Shown one piece after another: positions 3,149-52,455 of a DNA stretch of 64,000 nucleotides. How positions within the stretch are numbered: position 1 is the stretch's first letter; every line of letters begins with the position of its first letter. The notes below the pieces were generated by a model. It made no database searches. It saw only the letters and a program-made list of their open reading frames with translations, and had not been told where the DNA came from. A program made the translations under genes and the position numbers. The DNA comes from an uncultured Candidatus Saccharibacteria bacterium (lineage in GTDB: Bacteria > Patescibacteriota > Minisyncoccia > Phycocordibacterales > GWA1-40-21). The stretch lies in the NCBI GenBank assembly GCA_964562105.1, contig CAZLRP010000002.1:19222-83221 (forward strand), in the 5' to 3' direction.

Positions 3149-4819
3149 TTACAGATTTCTCTTCACAAAAAGCCTTACAATTCTTAATTCTTCGTAAGTA
3201 TAAGCGAGCCCCAGTTTATTTTTTATCGGTGAAAGCAAAAAATCGCGATTTTCTCCATAAAGTTCACGAAAAGCCATCCAGATTTTTTTGTACTTCCCTG
3301 TTGGGACTTCTTTTTTTAAATGATTTATATCAAAGGTCGGATCTTCTGTAATAATTTTTTCTATATGGTCTAAAATCGTTCCTATTTTTACTCCTTTGAT
3401 TTCTAAAATTTCTTTGAGTCCCATTCCTTGTATAAGCATATTTTTTGTTTCTTGCATCGGTGAGATTCTGTTCTTTTTCTTCTTATCAATCTTAGTTCCT
3501 TCTGGTGGAGCTACTTTTTTCAAAAATTCTTCCTGTTTTTGTTTTACTTCCTTATCTGATAGTAAATAAAACCACTGCTTATCAGAATCAGACATTTCCT
3601 TCAAATCTTCATCAAAAATCATTATATCTTCCCTCACCTGTAGTGCATTTTTATTTATTCCAAGGAGACGAAGGCCTTCAAGCGTGCGAACACGAGAAAG
3701 CGCAACATATCCCATTCCTTTTTCAAAAGATTTTGAAAGGTCCACTTCAACAGCATCCAAGCTCATACCTTGGCTTTTGTGCACTGTGATAGCCCAAGCT
3801 AGACGGAGAGGATATTGTGTAATCGTCGCTTTAATTTTTCCTTCTTCTTCAATAACCCAATTTACTTTTTCCGGAGTGATTATCTTCCCTGAAGTAAGCA
3901 TAATTTTCGGTCCATAATTTGAACATTCAATCACTTTTCCGAGAGTTCCATTTGCATATCCTTCTTCAAAATTATTTTTTACAAACATCACTCTGGCACC
4001 TTTTTTTAGGCGCAAAATTTCCGGTGCAAGACAACTTTTCTTCAACGCTTCCACGAGAGCCTTTCTTCCTTTATCTTCCATCTGATATGTAAAAATCTGG
4101 CCAAAAAGTTTATTAAGCTCACTGTCATTTATAGTATCCACATTTATATTATGGGTGTGGAGCTTCGTTGGTTCAATTCCCTCTTTTAAACAAGCGTTGT
4201 TTCTTGAATTTAAACAAAACAAAGATTCTTCAGAAAGATTATTTCCGCGAATTCCATTCAAAATTTTTATAAACTTATCTTCTTTGTGTCTATATTGCTC
4301 TTCCAAATAGCATATTTTTAAATCTAGTTTTTTCCAAGTTTCTGATTTATAGGAAAAATGAGATTCTTTTTCGCCCATTCTTGAAACTGGCGGAAGCTGA
4401 AAAAAATCTCCACAAAGTATCACCTGCATTCCACCGAATGGAAGCTGATTTCTTTTTAAATGTCTTGCAATTCTTTCTATCAAATCTAGCCGAAAATGAT
4501 GTAGCATTGAAACCTCATCAATAATCAAAACATCAGTATTTGCAAATCTGTCATGTAAATATTTTTTGCTTTCTAAATCCTCAAGATCGTATTCTGAAAG
4601 CTCATCGCGAATTCCAAGTCCGCTCCAAGAATGAATTGTCGTTCCACCCATATGTGTTGCGGCAATCCCGGTGCTAGCCGTAATACCAACTTCAACTCCT
4701 TTATTTTTAAGAAATTTTATATATTCGTTTAGAAGATGTGTTTTTCCGCTTCCCGCCGCTCCGGTAATGTAGCAGTTGTATCCCATCTTCAATATGTCCA
4801 GCGCATCCTTTTGGGTCAT
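3149..4819 (-). CDS. PIF1/RecD-like ATP-dependent DNA helicase with C-terminal HTH-like extension
   Basis: Walker A (ITGAAGSGKTHLL), Walker B (VLIIDEVSM), QLPPV motif and a C-terminal UvrD_C_2-like segment (LRLAWAITVHKSQGMSLD). Confidence 0.8.
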   Translation of the reverse strand: MTQKDALDILKMGYNCYITGAAGSGKTHLLNEYIKFLKNKGVEVGITASTGIAATHMGGTTIHSWSGLGIRDELSEYDLEDLESKKYLHDRFANTDVLIIDEVSMLHHFRLDLIERIARHLKRNQLPFGGMQVILCGDFFQLPPVSRMGEKESHFSYKSETWKKLDLKICYLEEQYRHKEDKFIKILNGIRGNNLSEESLFCLNSRNNACLKEGIEPTKLHTHNINVDTINDSELNKLFGQIFTYQMEDKGRKALVEALKKSCLAPEILRLKKGARVMFVKNNFEEGYANGTLGKVIECSNYGPKIMLTSGKIITPEKVNWVIEEEGKIKATITQYPLRLAWAITVHKSQGMSLDAVEVDLSKSFEKGMGYVALSRVRTLEGLRLLGINKNALQVREDIMIFDEDLKEMSDSDKQWFYLLSDKEVKQKQEEFLKKVAPPEGTKIDKKKKNRISPMQETKNMLIQGMGLKEILEIKGVKIGTILDHIEKIITEDPTFDINHLKKEVPTGKYKKIWMAFRELYGENRDFLLSPIKNKLGLAYTYEELRIVRLFVKRNL

Positions 4820-4842
4820 AGTGAAAATGATTATATCATTTT

Positions 4843-5529
4843 CTACTTACTTTTTCTCCACTCATCAATCAATTTATGATTTCCTGACAACAGAACTTTT
4901 GGAACACGATATTTTTTACCTTTATATTCCAAAACTTCAGGTCTTGTATAAATCTCACCGCTTGAAATTCTTCCTTCTTCAAGCGAAGCTTTGTTCCCAA
5001 GCACACCATCTATCTGTCTTGAAACACAATCCATGATAATCATTGCTGGAAGTTCGCCACCTGTGAGGACAAAATTTCCTACGGAAATTTTGTCCGTTTT
5101 GAATATTTTATTCACTCTTTCATCAATTCCTTCATATCTTCCGGAAATAATTATAATATCGGAATACTTTTTTGCAGATTCTTTTGCATAAGTGGTATCA
5201 AATTGTTTTCCTCTTGGACTTAAAAATATAATTTTGTATTTTGACTTTCCACTTTTAACTTTCAACTTTATAACTCTTAAGGCTTTTTCCAAAGCTTTAA
5301 GCACCGGTTCTGCTTGCATTACCATTCCTGGACCTCCACCATAAGGAATATCATCTACTCTTTTGTATGGCTTGTCTTTTTCTTTTTGCACTTTTGTAAC
5401 TTTTGCAAAATCACGTGGATTATAAAAAACTACCTTGATTTTCTTTTCTTTTATCGCGCGTGCCAAAATAGACTCATTTAAATATGAGCTGAAAGCCTCC
5501 GGAAATAATGTGATTATGTGAAATGTCAT
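4843..5529 (-). CDS. trmD: tRNA (guanine37-N1)-methyltransferase TrmD
   Basis: MTFHIITLFPEAF...DIPYGGGPGMVM...IISGRYEGIDERV. Start taken at the MTFHII Met; the ORF track extends to 5550. Confidence 0.9.
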   Translation of the reverse strand: MTFHIITLFPEAFSSYLNESILARAIKEKKIKVVFYNPRDFAKVTKVQKEKDKPYKRVDDIPYGGGPGMVMQAEPVLKALEKALRVIKLKVKSGKSKYKIIFLSPRGKQFDTTYAKESAKKYSDIIIISGRYEGIDERVNKIFKTDKISVGNFVLTGGELPAMIIMDCVSRQIDGVLGNKASLEEGRISSGEIYTRPEVLEYKGKKYRVPKVLLSGNHKLIDEWRKSK

Positions 5530-5578
5530 CGCCACAATAAAATACAACATAATTGATAAAATTACAAATCACAAACCT

Positions 5579-5693
5579 CAATTCAGCGATAGCGTAATTA
5601 CACACTCCAATCTTTACCGTTTGTACTTTTTTGTCAAAAAGGTCTTAGTGTCCTAATGCACCCACTACCCCAATTACGCTATCGCTGAATTGG
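5579..5693. repeat. Perfect 21-bp inverted repeat (CAATTCAGCGATAGCGTAATT / AATTACGCTATCGCTGAATTG) separated by 73 bp
   Basis: Arms at 5579-5599 and 5673-5693 are exact reverse complements. They lie between the trmD start and ORF 5698. Confidence 0.7.
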
Positions 5694-5697
5694 TTTA

Positions 5698-6102
5698 TTG
5701 TGTATACTATATGAAATGAAAAAGATGAGAGATATAAAATACAAAGGTATTAGTGTTGGCGCTTTTGGTTTACCTAGACTAAACTCATTTTCAAAGCCTC
5801 CTGTACAAAAACCAACAAAAAGAATCTTTCATGCCACCTTTCTGTCAATTTTCGAAAAAGATGCAACGAAGAATTTGATAGTTATTTATGATATTCCGGA
5901 AGAAAAGAAAAAAGAAAGAGACTGGTTTCGTCGCCATTTAAAAAAATTTAATTATGTCATGATTCAAAGAAGTGTTTGGGTTGGTCCTTCTCCCCTACCA
6001 AAAGATTTTCTTAATTATGTAAAATCAATCGGCTTAAAAGATAAACTAAAAACTTTTAAATTAGCAAAACCTTATTCAGAAAATAGTAACAATATAGATT
6101 AA
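5698..6102 (+). CDS. Small Cas2/VapD-like protein, hypothetical (134 aa as ORF). The Cas2-like beta1-alpha1 segment starts about residue 55; an alternative TTG start would give ~80 aa.
   Basis: Segment LIVIYDIPEEKKKERDWFRRHLKKFNYVMIQRSVWVG matches the Cas2/VapD N-terminal pattern: hydrophobic strand, YD(V/I)-P, R..L...G...Q.SV(F/W). No CRISPR array nearby. Confidence 0.4.
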   Translation: MCILYEMKKMRDIKYKGISVGAFGLPRLNSFSKPPVQKPTKRIFHATFLSIFEKDATKNLIVIYDIPEEKKKERDWFRRHLKKFNYVMIQRSVWVGPSPLPKDFLNYVKSIGLKDKLKTFKLAKPYSENSNNID

Positions 6103-6106
6103 ATTT

Positions 6107-6126
6107 TATTTACGCTATAGCGTAAA
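6107..6126. promoter_or_regulatory. Perfect 20-bp palindrome ATTTACGCTATAGCGTAAAT sharing the TTACGCTAT core with the upstream IR arms
   Basis: Located 5 bp after the stop of ORF 5698..6102. A zero-spacer palindrome suggests a dimeric protein-binding site rather than a terminator. Confidence 0.45.
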
Positions 6127-6229
6127 TGAAACGATTATCTCACCAAATTTTCTTCTAGGTTTACATTAATAAAAGTTATGCTAATCTAATAAACGGAAGA
6201 TTTAACAAATCGATTTAAGGGGGTGTATT

Positions 6230-6511
6230 ATGGAAGAGAAAATGGAGAAAAAAGACGTAGACGCTCTTGCTATTCTTTTGGAAAAAGTGGGATATGATAA
6301 TCCTGAAAAACTCATAGAAAAAGAGCTTATTCCGCTCGCAATCAAAGAAAGCTGGTCTTTACGCAAAGCCCTGAACAAATATGCAGATGCATATTTAGGC
6401 GAAAAGACAAATTGGCACCAGCTTCGTATAGCCCTGAATCACATCAGTTCTGCAGACTTAAACGTATTGGCTATCAATGAAGTCGTTATTAAAAAACCAC
6501 CCTGGTTATAA
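6230..6511 (+). CDS. Hypothetical protein, 93 aa
   Basis: Strong SD (AAGGGGGTG) 7 nt upstream of the ATG, followed by two terminator hairpins. Confidence 0.5.
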   Translation: MEEKMEKKDVDALAILLEKVGYDNPEKLIEKELIPLAIKESWSLRKALNKYADAYLGEKTNWHQLRIALNHISSADLNVLAINEVVIKKPPWL

Positions 6512-6526
6512 GGGTGGTTTTTTTAA
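6491..6526 (+). terminator. Intrinsic terminator (ccaccctggttataagggtgg + T-run)
   Basis: Hairpin overlapping the stop of ORF 6230..6511, followed by TTTTTTT. Confidence 0.6.
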
Positions 6527-6537
6527 TTATTAAATAC

Positions 6538-6575
6538 AAAAGGCGCGACCTTCGGTCGCGCCTTTTGATTTTTTA
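6538..6575. terminator. Bidirectional intrinsic terminator (ggcgcgacc-ttcg-ggtcgcgcc flanked by A- and T-runs)
   Basis: GC-rich 9-bp stem with A-run on the left and T-run on the right. It sits between convergent genes. Confidence 0.7.
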
Positions 6576-6577
6576 TT

Positions 6578-6904
6578 TTATAACTTCAAATCTGCCATCG
6601 CCTCATCTACAGTTTTTGTAGAAGGCTCTTTTGAAAGAGTCGTCATTCTTGGCGCGCTTCCTTCAGGCTCTTCAATTTTCAAGTTTACTCTTGAATTGTT
6701 TTTCATTCCTACAACTCTTAATAGAGTTCTTATTGCTTTTGCTGTGTTGCCCGATCTCCCTATAACTTTGCCCATATCGGCATTATCCACAACAAGGGTC
6801 ATCAATACGCCCATTTCATCCACTGTTCTGGTAATTTTTACTTTTTCTGGAACATCAACTAAAGCCTTAACAACGAGTTCAAGAAATTTTGTATCGTTCT
6901 CCAT
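6578..6904 (-). CDS. KH-domain RNA-binding protein (YlqC/UPF0109 family)
   Basis: VDEMGVLMTLVVDNADMGKVIGRSGNTAKAIRTLL, a KH GxxG motif. Classic position downstream of rpsP. Start taken at the MENDTKF Met. Confidence 0.75.
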   Translation of the reverse strand: MENDTKFLELVVKALVDVPEKVKITRTVDEMGVLMTLVVDNADMGKVIGRSGNTAKAIRTLLRVVGMKNNSRVNLKIEEPEGSAPRMTTLSKEPSTKTVDEAMADLKL

Positions 6905-7017
6905 TGTGTTTAATTTCTGATTCTGATATTTACAGCAGTTCGACCGGTAATTTATAAAATACTGCCTGCACATATATTATCACAAGTAAAAAACTCTGCA
7001 ATTATTTTAACAACAAA

Positions 7018-7047
7018 AATCTGCCTGTTTTCACAGGCAGATTTTAG
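7018..7047 (-). terminator. Hairpin (aaatctgcctg-ttttca-caggcagattt) just downstream of rpsP
   Basis: Perfect 11-bp stem with A/T flanks. Possible attenuator between rpsP and the KH gene. Confidence 0.5.
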
Positions 7048-7054
7048 AAGATCT

Positions 7055-7486
7055 TTATATTTCAGCTTTTATTTCTTCTTTTGGCAATTCCGTTGGAACA
7101 GGTTCCGAAGCTATTACTGGAGTTTCTGTTGGAGTTGGCTCCGCCTTCGAAGCTTTTGCAGTGGCTTCAGTTTTCACCGCATCTTCTTTTGCTTTTTTTG
7201 CGTTTATAATTTTATTTTTGGGAAGTACATTTATTTTCTTTCCGGTGACAATTTTTTGGTCAACAAGAAAATTGTGAACTGTATCTGAAACTTGAGCACC
7301 TTTTGAAATCCAGTATTTTACTTTTTCTGCATCTACATGATTATTGCCTTTTCCTTTCCTTGCATCATAAGAACCCAAAACTTCAACGGCTTTCCCGCTT
7401 TTTGGTCCGAACTTCGAGTCTGTAAGCACGATACGAAAAGTTGGTTCATGAACTCTTCCTACCCTTTGTAATCTAATTATTAACAT
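7055..7486 (-). CDS. rpsP: 30S ribosomal protein S16 with Lys/Ala/Glu-rich C-terminal tail
   Basis: MLIIRLQRVGRVHEPTFRIVLTD...YWISKGAQVSDTV matches bS16. Confidence 0.9.
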   Translation of the reverse strand: MLIIRLQRVGRVHEPTFRIVLTDSKFGPKSGKAVEVLGSYDARKGKGNNHVDAEKVKYWISKGAQVSDTVHNFLVDQKIVTGKKINVLPKNKIINAKKAKEDAVKTEATAKASKAEPTPTETPVIASEPVPTELPKEEIKAEI

Positions 7487-7531
7487 AGACGCCATAGTAA
7501 CAAAATATTTCAAAAAAGCAAGGCTTATGCT

Positions 7532-9604
7532 ATGCTTATTTCACAAATGAAAAAGAATAACAAATTCTGGAAAGAGAGAAGAAAAGACAACCGAAAGACT
7601 GAACACTCTGGCAAATTAAGGATTCTAAGTGGTAAAATCAAAGCCATCCGAGGACATACAGCCTATTTTATATCTGATATAAATAATATTTCAGTCGAAA
7701 TTTCTACAAGACAGATAAATACTGCAATGGCTGGAGATAAGGTTGAAATTAAGTTATTTAAAAAAAATAAAGCTGGGGTCCACGAAGGTGAAGTGGTAAA
7801 AATTCTAAGTCGCGCAAAAAATTATTTTGTCGGAACTATTGAATTGTCTGCCAAAGGTGTACTTGTGATTCCAGATGATAGAAGAATTAAAATTTCAGTA
7901 AAAATTACCCCGGAAAAAGCCATCGATTTAAAAAACAAGGATAAGGTTAGGGTAAAAATAATAAAATGGGTAGAAGCCCCTGCGTTTTCCGAAGGAGAGA
8001 TTGTAACTGTTTTAGGCAAAAAAGGAGATAATTCCACCGAGATGAATTCTATTGCGATAGATAAAGGTTTTGATATAGATTTTCCCGCGCAGGTTTTACA
8101 GGAATCCAAAAATATTTTCAATCAAAGCGCAAAAATTTCTTCCGAAGAAATCGCAAAGAGAAAAGATTTGAGAAATACGCTTACCTTTACGATTGACCCA
8201 AAAACTGCAAAAGATTTTGACGATGCAATTTCCTTTAAAAAACTCTCGAATGGAAATTTTGAAATTGGGGTTCATATCGCCGATGTATCTCACTACGTCA
8301 CAGAAAAAAGCGAGCTAGACAAAGAAGCTTATAAGCGAGGATGTTCCGTGTATCTTCCCGATAGAACGATCCCTATGCTTCCCTTTGAGCTTTCTGATAA
8401 CCTCTGCAGTTTGAGCGAAGGAGATGAAAAACTCGCCTTTTCAGCTATTTTTGAAATTAATCCTCATGCAAAAGTACTTTCAAAATGGTTTGAAAAATCT
8501 GTCATAAAATCTGCAAAAAGATTCACTTATGAAAGTGCCCAAGAAATTTTGAATGCAAAAACAGGTCAGCACTTTGAAGAGCTTAATACATTAAATAAAA
8601 TTGCAAAACTTTTGAGACGTGAAAAATTCCAAAAAGGCGCGATAGATTTTGAACAGGAAGAAATAGCTTTTGAACTAGACGAGGCTGGAAAACCTATAAA
8701 AATTTACAAAAAACAAAGACTTGATACTCACAAACTAGTTGAAGAATACATGCTTCTTGCAAACAAAGAAGTTGCTGAATATGTCTATAAATTTGAGAAA
8801 AAGTCCGGTAAACTGTTCCCTCTTCCGTATCGTATTCACGATTTTCCAGACAAAGATAGAATTTCCGAGCTCGCAGTTTTTGTAAAAGCTTTGGGACATG
8901 AGCTTATTATCGGAAAAACAGGAAGCATTACAGGAAAAGATATGCAGGCACTTTTTGCTCAAGTAGAAGGAAAAGCTGAAGAATCACTTGTAAAAACTGC
9001 TGCGATTCGCTCAATGTCAAAAGCAATCTACTCAACAAAAAATATCGGACATTTCGGACTGGCCTTTGAATATTACGCACACTTCACCTCGCCTATCAGA
9101 AGATATCCTGATCTTTTGGTTCACAGGATTTTGCAAAAAATACTTAGCAAAGACCGCAGTCAAATAAAAAGCCAATTTGACGGGGCAAGAAATATCGCCC
9201 ACGAAAAGTCTGCTGACCTCGTGGCAAGAGAAATAAATCTGGTATTTTACGAGAAAGCTTGTTCACACAGTACAGATCAAGAAATAAAAGCTTCCGAAGC
9301 AGAACGTGACGGAAGAAAATACAAACAAATAGAATATATGCAAGATAAAGTTGGAAAAACTTTTGACGGTATTATTACCGGCGTCACTGAATGGGGTATT
9401 TATGCGGAAGATTCGCAAACTAGAGCGGAGGGTATGATAAAGCTTTCTTCACTCGGAGATGACTTCTATAAACTTGATGCAAAAACTTATTCTGTAATCG
9501 GAGAAAAAACAAAACAAGTTTATTCGCTTGGACAAAAAGTAAAAATTAAACTAGTTTCTGCAGATTTAGACAAAAAGCAGATGGATTATGAAATAATTAG
9601 CTAA
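7532..9604 (+). CDS. rnr: Ribonuclease R (RNB-family 3'-5' exoribonuclease with C-terminal S1 domain)
   Basis: Cold-shock/OB N-terminus, RNB motifs (HFGLAFEYYAHFTSPIRRYPDLLVHR) and a C-terminal S1-like domain. Confidence 0.9.
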   Translation: MLISQMKKNNKFWKERRKDNRKTEHSGKLRILSGKIKAIRGHTAYFISDINNISVEISTRQINTAMAGDKVEIKLFKKNKAGVHEGEVVKILSRAKNYFVGTIELSAKGVLVIPDDRRIKISVKITPEKAIDLKNKDKVRVKIIKWVEAPAFSEGEIVTVLGKKGDNSTEMNSIAIDKGFDIDFPAQVLQESKNIFNQSAKISSEEIAKRKDLRNTLTFTIDPKTAKDFDDAISFKKLSNGNFEIGVHIADVSHYVTEKSELDKEAYKRGCSVYLPDRTIPMLPFELSDNLCSLSEGDEKLAFSAIFEINPHAKVLSKWFEKSVIKSAKRFTYESAQEILNAKTGQHFEELNTLNKIAKLLRREKFQKGAIDFEQEEIAFELDEAGKPIKIYKKQRLDTHKLVEEYMLLANKEVAEYVYKFEKKSGKLFPLPYRIHDFPDKDRISELAVFVKALGHELIIGKTGSITGKDMQALFAQVEGKAEESLVKTAAIRSMSKAIYSTKNIGHFGLAFEYYAHFTSPIRRYPDLLVHRILQKILSKDRSQIKSQFDGARNIAHEKSADLVAREINLVFYEKACSHSTDQEIKASEAERDGRKYKQIEYMQDKVGKTFDGIITGVTEWGIYAEDSQTRAEGMIKLSSLGDDFYKLDAKTYSVIGEKTKQVYSLGQKVKIKLVSADLDKKQMDYEIIS

Positions 9605-51543: not shown

Positions 51544-52455
51544 TCAACTTTGTACTTTATAACTTGCAAGCGCGAGCTTCGCGAGCGCGATTGCTCCCTC
51601 TTTTGACTTTGCCACGGCGACGAATCTGTCATTATGACAAAAAATTGCGCCTGAAACTCCTGTTATTTTTTCCAAATCTCCGTCTCTTTTTCCAGACCAA
51701 CTTTCTGGAAAATATATTCTTCTTTCAAATTTTGCATCAATTTTTACAACAGCTTCAACGCTCCAAGTCTTATTTGGTTTTGGAGATATTACAAAAAGCG
51801 GCTCAGAATAACTAACAACAGTTTTTTTCCATGAATAATTGTCATCTAAAATAATAATTCGCTTATCTTCAGTTTTTTTATATATGTCCCGAACAATTTC
51901 AATAGCAATATAATTATCTTTTGCACGTTTTATTTCTCTTAAAAGCATTTTTTTAACTTCTTTCACAGCAAATAAGAATGATTTTAAATGATCTCCCTTT
52001 TCTCTCCATGTAGGGTTAAGTGCATGCACATAATCAAAAAAAGAATATGGCGATATTTTTTCGAAAATATTTTTATATATTTCTACACCACTATCTTCAG
52101 CATCTACTGGTTGAATTATTTTTTCATCAATTTTATCTGCTATTTCTTGAGAGTCAGCTATTTTTTCTCCATACTCTTTCCATACTAGACCGCTAGTGGC
52201 ATAAGGAATGCCATTTCCCCTTTTTTTATTCCAACCTTCCTCATGATGATCAAACTTATTTGTTTTTGGATTATATTCTCCTCCGACATCCAGAACGAAA
52301 TCCATATCTGATAAAATTTTCTTATTTCTTGTCCTAAAAATTTTTAATGGTTTTTTTAAATATAAAGATAAAATCGCTACAGAAAATACATCGTCCGGGT
52401 GAAACCTTCCGTCATGAACCGCGACTTTTATTTTTTTACTTTTTCGTAATGTCAT
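51544..52455 (-). CDS. MYG1/UPF0160-family metal-dependent hydrolase
   Basis: VAVHDGRFHPDDVFSVAIL resembles the MYG1 GTHxGxFHxDE motif. Confidence 0.6.
   Translation of the reverse strand: MTLRKSKKIKVAVHDGRFHPDDVFSVAILSLYLKKPLKIFRTRNKKILSDMDFVLDVGGEYNPKTNKFDHHEEGWNKKRGNGIPYATSGLVWKEYGEKIADSQEIADKIDEKIIQPVDAEDSGVEIYKNIFEKISPYSFFDYVHALNPTWREKGDHLKSFLFAVKEVKKMLLREIKRAKDNYIAIEIVRDIYKKTEDKRIIILDDNYSWKKTVVSYSEPLFVISPKPNKTWSVEAVVKIDAKFERRIYFPESWSGKRDGDLEKITGVSGAIFCHNDRFVAVAKSKEGAIALAKLALASYKVQS

Follow-up and report, generated by a model that had tools for sequence, protein, structure and literature searches.

Small dimeric autoregulators that bind palindromic boxes located at a set distance ahead of the gene encoding them are represented by the C proteins of restriction–modification systems (C.PvuII, C.AhdI), which often have leaderless transcripts and exist in many orthogonal specificities. 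Genes bracketed by hairpin-capable palindromes are found in repetitive extragenic palindrome (REP) units with their REP-associated tyrosine transposases (RAYTs) and between the ends of IS200/IS605 elements. A Cas2-like fold is present in VapD of the VapXD pairs (PDB 3UI3, 6ZN8), in CRISPR Cas2, dimers of which contact double-stranded DNA in Cas1–Cas2 complexes (PDB 8PK1, 5XVN), and in the central domain of PaaX (PDB 8A39, 3L09). PaaX is dimeric and autoregulated at its own promoter, Px, which it represses by sterically hindering RNA polymerase, with a central domain that serves as dimerisation motif (PMC9493321). The subject of the present analysis is a small gene, termed X, that lies between trmD and a KH-domain gene in a 64,000-nucleotide stretch (the window) of an uncultured Candidatus Saccharibacteria bacterium (contig CAZLRP010000002.1, positions 19,222 to 83,221) and that is accompanied by three palindromic sites. 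Judged from sequence comparisons, we consider it fairly probable that X is a miniature PaaX-like autoregulator that binds its own palindromes and forms a self-contained switch, probably as a repressor. The X module of the window comprises the following features.

5580..5599, unstranded: distal X-type site AATTCAGCGATAGCGTAATT, imperfectly palindromic, identical to the reverse complement of the proximal site
5600..5671, unstranded: spacer of the two upstream sites, 72 nt
5672..5691, unstranded: predicted promoter-proximal operator AATTACGCTATCGCTGAATT, with the dyad at 5681/5682 and the ATG about 34 nt further on
5703..5708, plus strand: −10 box TATACT, starting 21 nt past the dyad and ending 7 nt before the ATG at 5716
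5716..6102, plus strand: X, 128 amino acids, true start ATG 5716
6108..6127, unstranded: downstream site ATTTACGCTATAGCGTAAAT, a perfect 20-bp palindrome 5 nt past the stop codon

The start of X is placed at ATG 5716 and not at TTG 5698, since the window then fits the layout of the whole family. The protein consists of an N-terminal β-hairpin with a YKG..FG.P motif, a basic linker (residues ∼20–50) and a Cas2/PaaX_M ferredoxin-fold domain (residues 53–115). Its best Pfam match is PaaX_M (PF20803; E=1.3e-14, 54.5 bits against a cut-off of 24), the central Cas2-like domain that X has in common with PaaX, followed by CRISPR_Cas2 (PF09827; E=2.4e-7, 31.3 bits against 23.8), the profile of which aligns to X over its first half only. 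X also exceeds the cut-off of the NCBIfam cas2 model (TIGR01573; 30.4 bits against 24.5), and GenBank therefore calls its homologues ‘CRISPR-associated endonuclease Cas2’. With CRISPR Cas2 it shares the ferredoxin-like fold and a β1 ‘YD(I)’ motif with the conserved Asp; Tyr58-Asp59 is invariant, with Asp59 present in 25 of 25 sequences. The AlphaFold2 model (mean predicted local distance difference test score 74.7) has the β-hairpin at residues 7–14 and a low-confidence basic linker, and nearly all of its Foldseek matches are Cas2, then VapD and PaaX, with weak E values (∼1e-2) but probabilities near 1; they include PaaX 8A39, the Cas1–Cas2 complexes 8PK1 and 5XVN, and VapD 3UI3 and 6ZN8. The first-pass annotation, a reading of the sequence made without database searches, had called the gene Cas2/VapD-like; the Cas2 half of that description is borne out by Pfam, NCBIfam and the fold, whereas VapD appears only as a lower-ranked fold match.

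X lies outside PaaX proper because it lacks both a winged helix and PaaX_C. No helix-turn-helix family matches X, and before residue 53 its model has only the β-hairpin and the low-confidence linker; the PaaX_C effector domain is absent, as X ends at residue 128, and the full-length PaaX model TIGR02277 scores 15 bits against a cut-off of 264.55. A first search gave 1923 homologues of ∼120–135 amino acids, 55–75% identical, in Paceibacterota/Parcubacteria, and an exhaustive search gave 2271 cluster representatives at E<1e-3. Many of these representatives are ∼160 amino acids long and keep the YKG..FG.P motif with a PaaX-like helix-wing segment inserted right after it. They link X to the winged-helix form, and within this PaaX-like superfamily X is the shortest member. 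Two such relatives (L166:1-600, L168:240-850) have the same order of site, −10 box, leaderless open reading frame (ORF) and site, with a GC-YATR-GC core. Several assemblies that carry X genes are titled ‘uncultured Candidatus Saccharibacteria’, and one (L070) ‘Gammaproteobacteria’; these look like mislabelled bins. No literature on the X family was found.

The layout of the module was examined in 85 loci that encode X homologues, ∼82 of which were assessed for sites, giving 76 upstream and 74 downstream sites. The site consensus is a 20–22-bp palindrome, A..T..GC-YATR-GC..A..T, and its symmetry often continues past the conserved core, with arms of up to 22–23 bp. The upstream palindrome occupies the −35 position, where there is no recognisable −35 hexamer, and its dyad is 33–37 nt from the ATG in 72 of the 76 loci. 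The −10 box starts 22–23 nt past the dyad in 69/76 loci and is exactly TATAAT in 56/76; a TG falls within 3 nt before it in 36/76, 16 of them at the canonical TGn position. The ATG follows the −10 box by 6–9 nt without a Shine–Dalgarno sequence, a spacing that implies a leaderless X mRNA. The second site is found from −20 to +50 nt relative to the stop codon, and at some loci the stop codon is inside it. Further sites with the same dyad-to-−10 spacing precede neighbouring genes in L039 (site 3487) and L052 (site 3260), so X could evidently control these as well. A third perfect site is found within the X coding region of the AAGTTCGC clade, ∼90 nt past the ATG (L022:4074-4093, L033:4083-4102).

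In the window an extra upstream site, present also in L001 and L006, gives rise to a perfect 21-bp inverted repeat with arms at 5579–5599 and 5672–5692 and 72 nt between them. Its stem continues for five further pairs across a 2-nt bulge, and its folding as DNA has z=−8.8 against shuffles. The 72-nt spacer is unconserved in L001 and L006; it holds a TTGACA on the minus strand (5637..5632), a possible promoter element of trmD, the start of which lies 50–70 nt from the distal site. The sequence TTACGCTAT occurs four times in the 64 kb, all within the three sites, where 0.40 occurrences are expected and four were reached in 0/100 shuffles; a 16-mer search allowing up to three mismatches likewise matched just the three sites, and no X-type site was found elsewhere in the window. 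The first-pass annotation had described the sites of the window. Its perfect inverted repeat is real, with the second arm and the spacer each off by one base; its 20-bp palindrome after the stop codon is found at 6108–6127; and the core that it reported as common to the three sites is confined to them. Its suggestion that these are operator sites of an autoregulated module agrees with the palindrome at the −35 position, the −10 box and the leaderless ATG, with the constancy of this geometry in the family (69/76 loci), and with the covariation of protein and site.

This covariation links X to its palindromes. The centre of the upstream site tracks residue 62, three positions past the invariant Asp59, in 76/76 loci: all 32 proteins with Glu or Asp at this residue go with a centre TATA, GATA or TATC, and all 44 with a non-acidic residue go with CATG, CTAG or TATG. 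Residue 85 (Lys or Arg) splits in the same way, and Glu62 and Arg85 of X agree with the TATA-type centre of its own site. Both centre states occur within six groups of proteins with a common outer half-site and are intermingled in the protein tree, which implies at least six separate switches; a single inherited accident would not account for the association. Positions 2 and 3 of the outer half-site correlate with linker residues 33, 36, 38 and 39, a correlation more confounded by phylogeny than that of the centre, and paralogues of one genome have differing half-sites. We take X to read its sites on account of the covariation between residue 62 and the site centre, which argues for recognition of the palindromes by X itself. 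In Cas2 dimers the β1 Asp residues are at the dimer interface, and a palindrome centred on the Cas2 dimer axis, with the N-terminal arms extending outward, would fit the pattern observed. At three loci (L015, L052, L079) the downstream site has the other type of centre (CATG versus TATA) from the upstream site of the same gene. Residue 62 agrees with the upstream site in each, and cross-talk of paralogues is a possible explanation of the mixed centres.

The fold, the family-wide architecture and the covariation of protein and site are observed; on them we base the following model. We infer that X binds DNA, and it is probably dimeric, as is PaaX. The Cas2/PaaX_M ferredoxin-fold domain would form the two-fold axis of the dimer, each subunit contributing an N-terminal arm made of the β-hairpin and the basic linker. 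The Cas2-like domain would read the site centre by means of residue 62, near the invariant Asp59, and residue 85, and the arms would read the outer half-sites. Bound to the site at 5672–5691, in the −35 position, X would shut off its own transcription by excluding RNA polymerase, the same competition by which PaaX is autoregulated. Any promoter of trmD would be separated from its gene by the distal copy at 5580–5599, the trmD-proximal one in the divergent region, and expression of trmD may thus be coupled to X. The downstream site (6108–6127) would most likely be either an auxiliary operator by which local occupancy is increased or a roadblock of bound protein, insulating the cassette. The module is one of several diverged paralogues per genome, each with its own site sequence.

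Several differences separate this arrangement from the systems to which it is compared. Unlike PaaX, X is without the recognition helix and wing of a winged helix and without a C-terminal ligand domain; its operator is a contiguous 20–22-bp palindrome versus TGATTC-N27-GAATCA in PaaX; its sites bracket the gene; and the site centre is apparently read by its Cas2-like domain, for which only a dimerisation role is described in PaaX. Unlike CRISPR Cas2, X has an extra 50-residue N-terminal arm and several paralogues per genome, and its recognition of a private palindrome would be sequence-specific. The resemblance to C proteins extends to size, autoregulation, fixed box position, leaderless transcripts and multiple specificities. 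However, C proteins contain a helix-turn-helix and control the adjacent endonuclease gene, whereas the fold of X is that of Cas2 and no controlled partner is conserved beside it. Most plausibly X works like an autoregulator of the PaaX or C-protein type on a Cas2 fold that seemingly reads DNA itself.

With respect to the sign of regulation, we favour negative autoregulation over activation because the −10 box matches the consensus, a TG precedes it in 36/76 loci, and PaaX represses Px. The alternative is that X is a positive autoregulator that replaces the missing −35 element and recruits RNA polymerase, an unlikely but serious possibility. Analogous activators are known in the pho-box protein PhoB and in the activating mode of the restriction–modification C proteins. 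The absence of a recognisable −35 hexamer is what such a mechanism would leave, and the dyad-to-−10 spacing is fixed within 1 bp in 69/76 loci, as for a stereospecific contact between protein and polymerase. However, promoters with TATAAT (56/76) and TG (36/76) usually need neither a −35 element nor an activator, and PaaX acts as a repressor at its own promoter.

The repressor model itself has points against it. Binding of DNA by X is deduced from covariation and position only, and without the DNA-reading winged helix of PaaX its mode of recognition would be new. A spacing this rigid between site and −10 box is seen more often with activators that touch RNA polymerase than with repressors that simply occlude the promoter. 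It is also not obvious how the cell would benefit from a regulator with hardly any target besides itself. A plain operator model does not predict sites behind stop codons or behind passenger genes (L070, L026, L048), and the near-universal downstream site has no promoter geometry, helical phasing or terminator features. The symmetry of the palindromes, with arms of up to 22–23 bp, often exceeds any plausible footprint. Finally, the invariant Asp59, a metal-binding residue in Cas2, is unexplained if X only binds DNA.

Other roles were considered for the sites and rejected. DNA looping with helical phasing finds no support in the upstream-to-downstream dyad distances, which range from 406 to 478 bp without a 10–11-bp periodicity (p∼0.15). 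The downstream site is not the operator of the next gene, there being no −10 box at a fixed spacing on either strand. An invertible promoter between the upstream arms was also rejected, as no relation is seen among the spacers of the window, L001 and L006 in either orientation; recombination between the perfect arms would in any case leave the arms unaltered. In a comparison of target duplication with terminal repeat, 13 asymmetric site pairs were direct, 9 inverted and 49 undecidable. A dispersed repeat was ruled out, since true sites occur only beside X in the 64-kb window and in 342 kb of trmD-anchored relatives.

A second alternative takes the palindromes to be the places at which a minimal selfish or mobile cassette ends, recombines or is cut, with X as a Cas2-fold nuclease or recombination factor that would cut at the dyad and so delimit or move [site]-gene-[site] units. 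It bears on the locus as a whole, the remaining features of which are as follows.

4843..5529 (5550 with the upstream ATG), minus strand: trmD, tRNA m1G37 methyltransferase (PF01746, 1.6e-35), one flank of the insert
6230..6511, plus strand: ORF2, 93 amino acids, without a Pfam family, with its own terminator and its own promoter-like site at 6202–6231
6491–6523, plus strand: intrinsic-terminator-like hairpin
6537–6567, bidirectional: intrinsic-terminator-like hairpin, shared with the KH gene
6578..6907, minus strand: KhpA-type KH-domain gene (PF13083, 1.1e-18), the other flank of the insert
7055..7492, minus strand: rpsP, ribosomal protein S16 (PF00886, 6.3e-15)

As the first-pass annotation had it, rpsP, the KH gene and trmD are all on the minus strand (Pfam matches of 6e-15, 1e-18 and 2e-35), and the gap between the KH gene and trmD, measured here as ∼1.03 kb, holds two small plus-strand ORFs (5698/5716..6102 and 6230..6511) with terminators. 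From the N-termini of homologues, ATG 5529 (MTFHIITLF...) is the most likely start of trmD. Among relatives with TrmD 72–84% identical, the KH–trmD gap is empty (84–94 bp; L088, L094), contains only an ORF2-like gene, contains other genes (L092, L099) or contains X (L086, L089, L093), and X is absent from 54 of 57 trmD loci in which the KH gene or X is also visible. These variable states make X an accessory occupant of the gap. The view that the X region is an insert in a conserved rpsP–KH–trmD operon thus stands, since close relatives (trmD 75–84% identical) have the gap empty or otherwise filled; compared among related genomes, the insert is present in some, absent from most and by no means universal. 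Across the loci collected, X occurs between the genes for S7 and EF-G (13 times), upstream of gatC-gatA (∼8 times), in the order trmD, X, KH (5 times), after SMC, and in many contexts seen only once, often inside conserved operons; genomes hold two to three or more copies.

Much of this suits a mobile cassette. The gene carries a site at both ends, arrays of the form [site]-gene-[site]-X-[site] exist, and the order of the 207-residue gene c19 in them is permuted. Presence or absence at KH–trmD differs among close relatives with the sites going with the unit, and two to three copies per genome are spread over many intergenic contexts, often within conserved operons. Asp59 is invariant and near the base-reading residue 62, and the site centres resemble restriction sites (CCATGG, CTATAG, CCTAGG, CGATCG) with symmetry that runs past the conserved core. 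The 207-residue gene is unannotated, belongs to no Pfam family and is bracketed by X-type sites (L052:3260-4380, L038, L070:94-1210); it lies upstream of X in L052 and L038 and downstream of X in L070.

However, the expected signs of recent mobility are missing. Within-genome copies of X are only 58–76% identical and are therefore old paralogues. The sole recent pair (L042 and L059, both in the genome MFWB01; a 95% pair with 93% nucleotide identity) shares just the ORF and the downstream site, the homology (L042:3976-4419 versus L059:3979-4422) ending at the start codon, and their upstream sites differ in orientation, one being direct and one inverted. The end of homology at the start codon suggests that old paralogues underwent gene conversion and does not look like transposition of a two-ended unit. 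The protein P0074, present on more than 90 contigs, is found in a constant context on 24 contigs from differing samples. There are no X homologues in IMG/VR, in GenBank phages (INPHARED) or among PLSDB plasmids; asymmetric sites have no consistent direct or inverted orientation; and the empty gaps hold no solo sites, the whole unit including its sites being missing there. Neither near-identical two-ended copies nor a further copy or site in the window was found, as would mark an insertion sequence, a miniature inverted-repeat transposable element or a REP–RAYT unit; unlike REP/RAYT and IS200/IS605, X has undispersed palindromes, no HUH transposase and no near-identical copies. We judge the cassette interpretation improbable, and the earlier proposal that the palindromes are the ends of a small inserted element is kept only as a minority possibility. 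Its most specific form, that X is a Cas1-independent, site-specific Cas2-fold enzyme that nicks or cuts the dyad and delimits, shuffles or moves [site]-gene-[site] cassettes, is more doubtful again. If true, it would be the smallest self-contained cassette system known (∼0.45 kb) and a living example of a role of Cas2 before its recruitment to CRISPR adaptation.

It is very unlikely that ORF1 (X) is a VapD/Cas2-type toxin with ORF2 as its antitoxin and the palindromes as the operator of the pair, which was an earlier proposal for this locus and has in its favour the Cas2/VapD fold, the two small adjacent genes and the palindrome at the promoter. ORF2 has its own promoter-like site and its own terminator, and the two genes occur apart: X is found without ORF2 in L001 and L004, in the trmD, X, KH context, and at most other loci, and ORF2 homologues are found without X in L087, L091 and L098, of which L087 is the closest relative of the window (S16 97% and KH 93% identical). 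The gene downstream of X varies over the 85 loci (gatC, a greA-like gene, genes of membrane proteins, or none), and neither side of X has a conserved partner. The small ORFs downstream of X, considered as candidates for a conserved small partner, form no family. PADLOC returns only Cas2 models. X, unlike VapD, has no VapD sequence match, no VapX-like partner and no conserved two-gene unit. Since ORF2 is not a conserved partner, the toxin–antitoxin proposal fails, and without a partner X is not half of a VapD-type pair. ORF2 is a neighbour inside the same gap and outside the X module. Profile searches match it to no known family. ORF2 (window 6230-6511) and its relatives in L087, L091, L098 and L011 are fast-evolving helical proteins of ∼90 amino acids in the KH–trmD gap, with or without X.

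There is equally little to recommend the view that the palindromes are RNA hairpins (terminators, stabilisers or processing sites) and not protein-binding DNA. They are long self-complementary sequences and the downstream one is transcribed, yet T-tracts are absent after all 74 downstream sites, and where imperfect sites have mismatches, these are A.G, C.T, A.A or T.T, with the wobble pair G.T almost absent. The upstream site precedes the apparent transcription start; the core sequence itself is conserved, not just its pairing, and covaries with the protein; and the sites have no Rfam match, a scan of 4500–7800 having given only sub-threshold chance matches on terminators.

Least probable of all is that X is an orphan Cas2 working for a distant CRISPR adaptation module of the same genome: it scores above the Cas2 thresholds of NCBIfam and Pfam, and its homologues are named ‘Cas2’ in GenBank, but its match to PaaX_M is stronger than that to Cas2, it has several copies per genome, each with private palindromes, and it is not a functional CRISPR Cas2 because array, cas1 (among the ORFs tested) and neighbouring cas genes are all lacking. 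Specifically, the 64-kb window contains no CRISPR-like repeat array, and the annotated neighbourhoods L001–L005 contain no cas genes. No Cas1 was found by a Pfam scan of ten ORFs of 315–472 amino acids, with other ORFs of at least 300 amino acids (including 51544..52455, 303 amino acids) and shorter ones unscreened. The first-pass statement that neither a CRISPR array nor cas1 is present accordingly stands for the array throughout the 64 kb and for cas1 only as regards these ten ORFs.

Among the neighbouring features, a Pif1-type helicase with a C-terminal HTH_40 domain (window 3149-4819, minus strand) lies directly downstream of trmD, and the trmD–Pif1 pairing is kept in close relatives. In two relatives that lack X, a long-range inverted repeat lies just upstream of trmD (L087:1368-1515, L095:1871-2020). 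Its arms, 27–29 nt long, 83–85% complementary and 90–96 nt apart, are unrelated in sequence to the X sites, and the proximal arm overlaps the trmD start codon; this repeat may be a leader structure of trmD. A tRNA scan found none at the locus.

The reading of X as a PaaX-like autoregulator has consequences beyond this locus. Thousands of genes of Parcubacteria/Paceibacterota that are named ‘CRISPR-associated endonuclease Cas2’ and have no CRISPR context probably encode DNA-binding regulators, and counts of CRISPR components in bacteria of the Candidate Phyla Radiation (CPR) are therefore inflated. If the model is correct, X would be the first case of the Cas2/PaaX_M fold itself reading DNA sequence, with an apparent code in which an acidic residue 62 is paired with a TATA-type centre and His, Ser or another residue a CATG-type centre. 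The family would then constitute a natural library of compact (∼125 amino acids), mutually orthogonal protein/operator pairs with a fixed promoter design, which could serve in synthetic circuits. It also provides an evolutionary connection between Cas2 and autoregulated DNA-binding modules. Recognisable transcription factors are very few in CPR bacteria, and the multi-copy X family, situated in translation-related operons (between the genes for S7 and EF-G, between KH and trmD, and upstream of gatCA), may be a main regulatory layer there.

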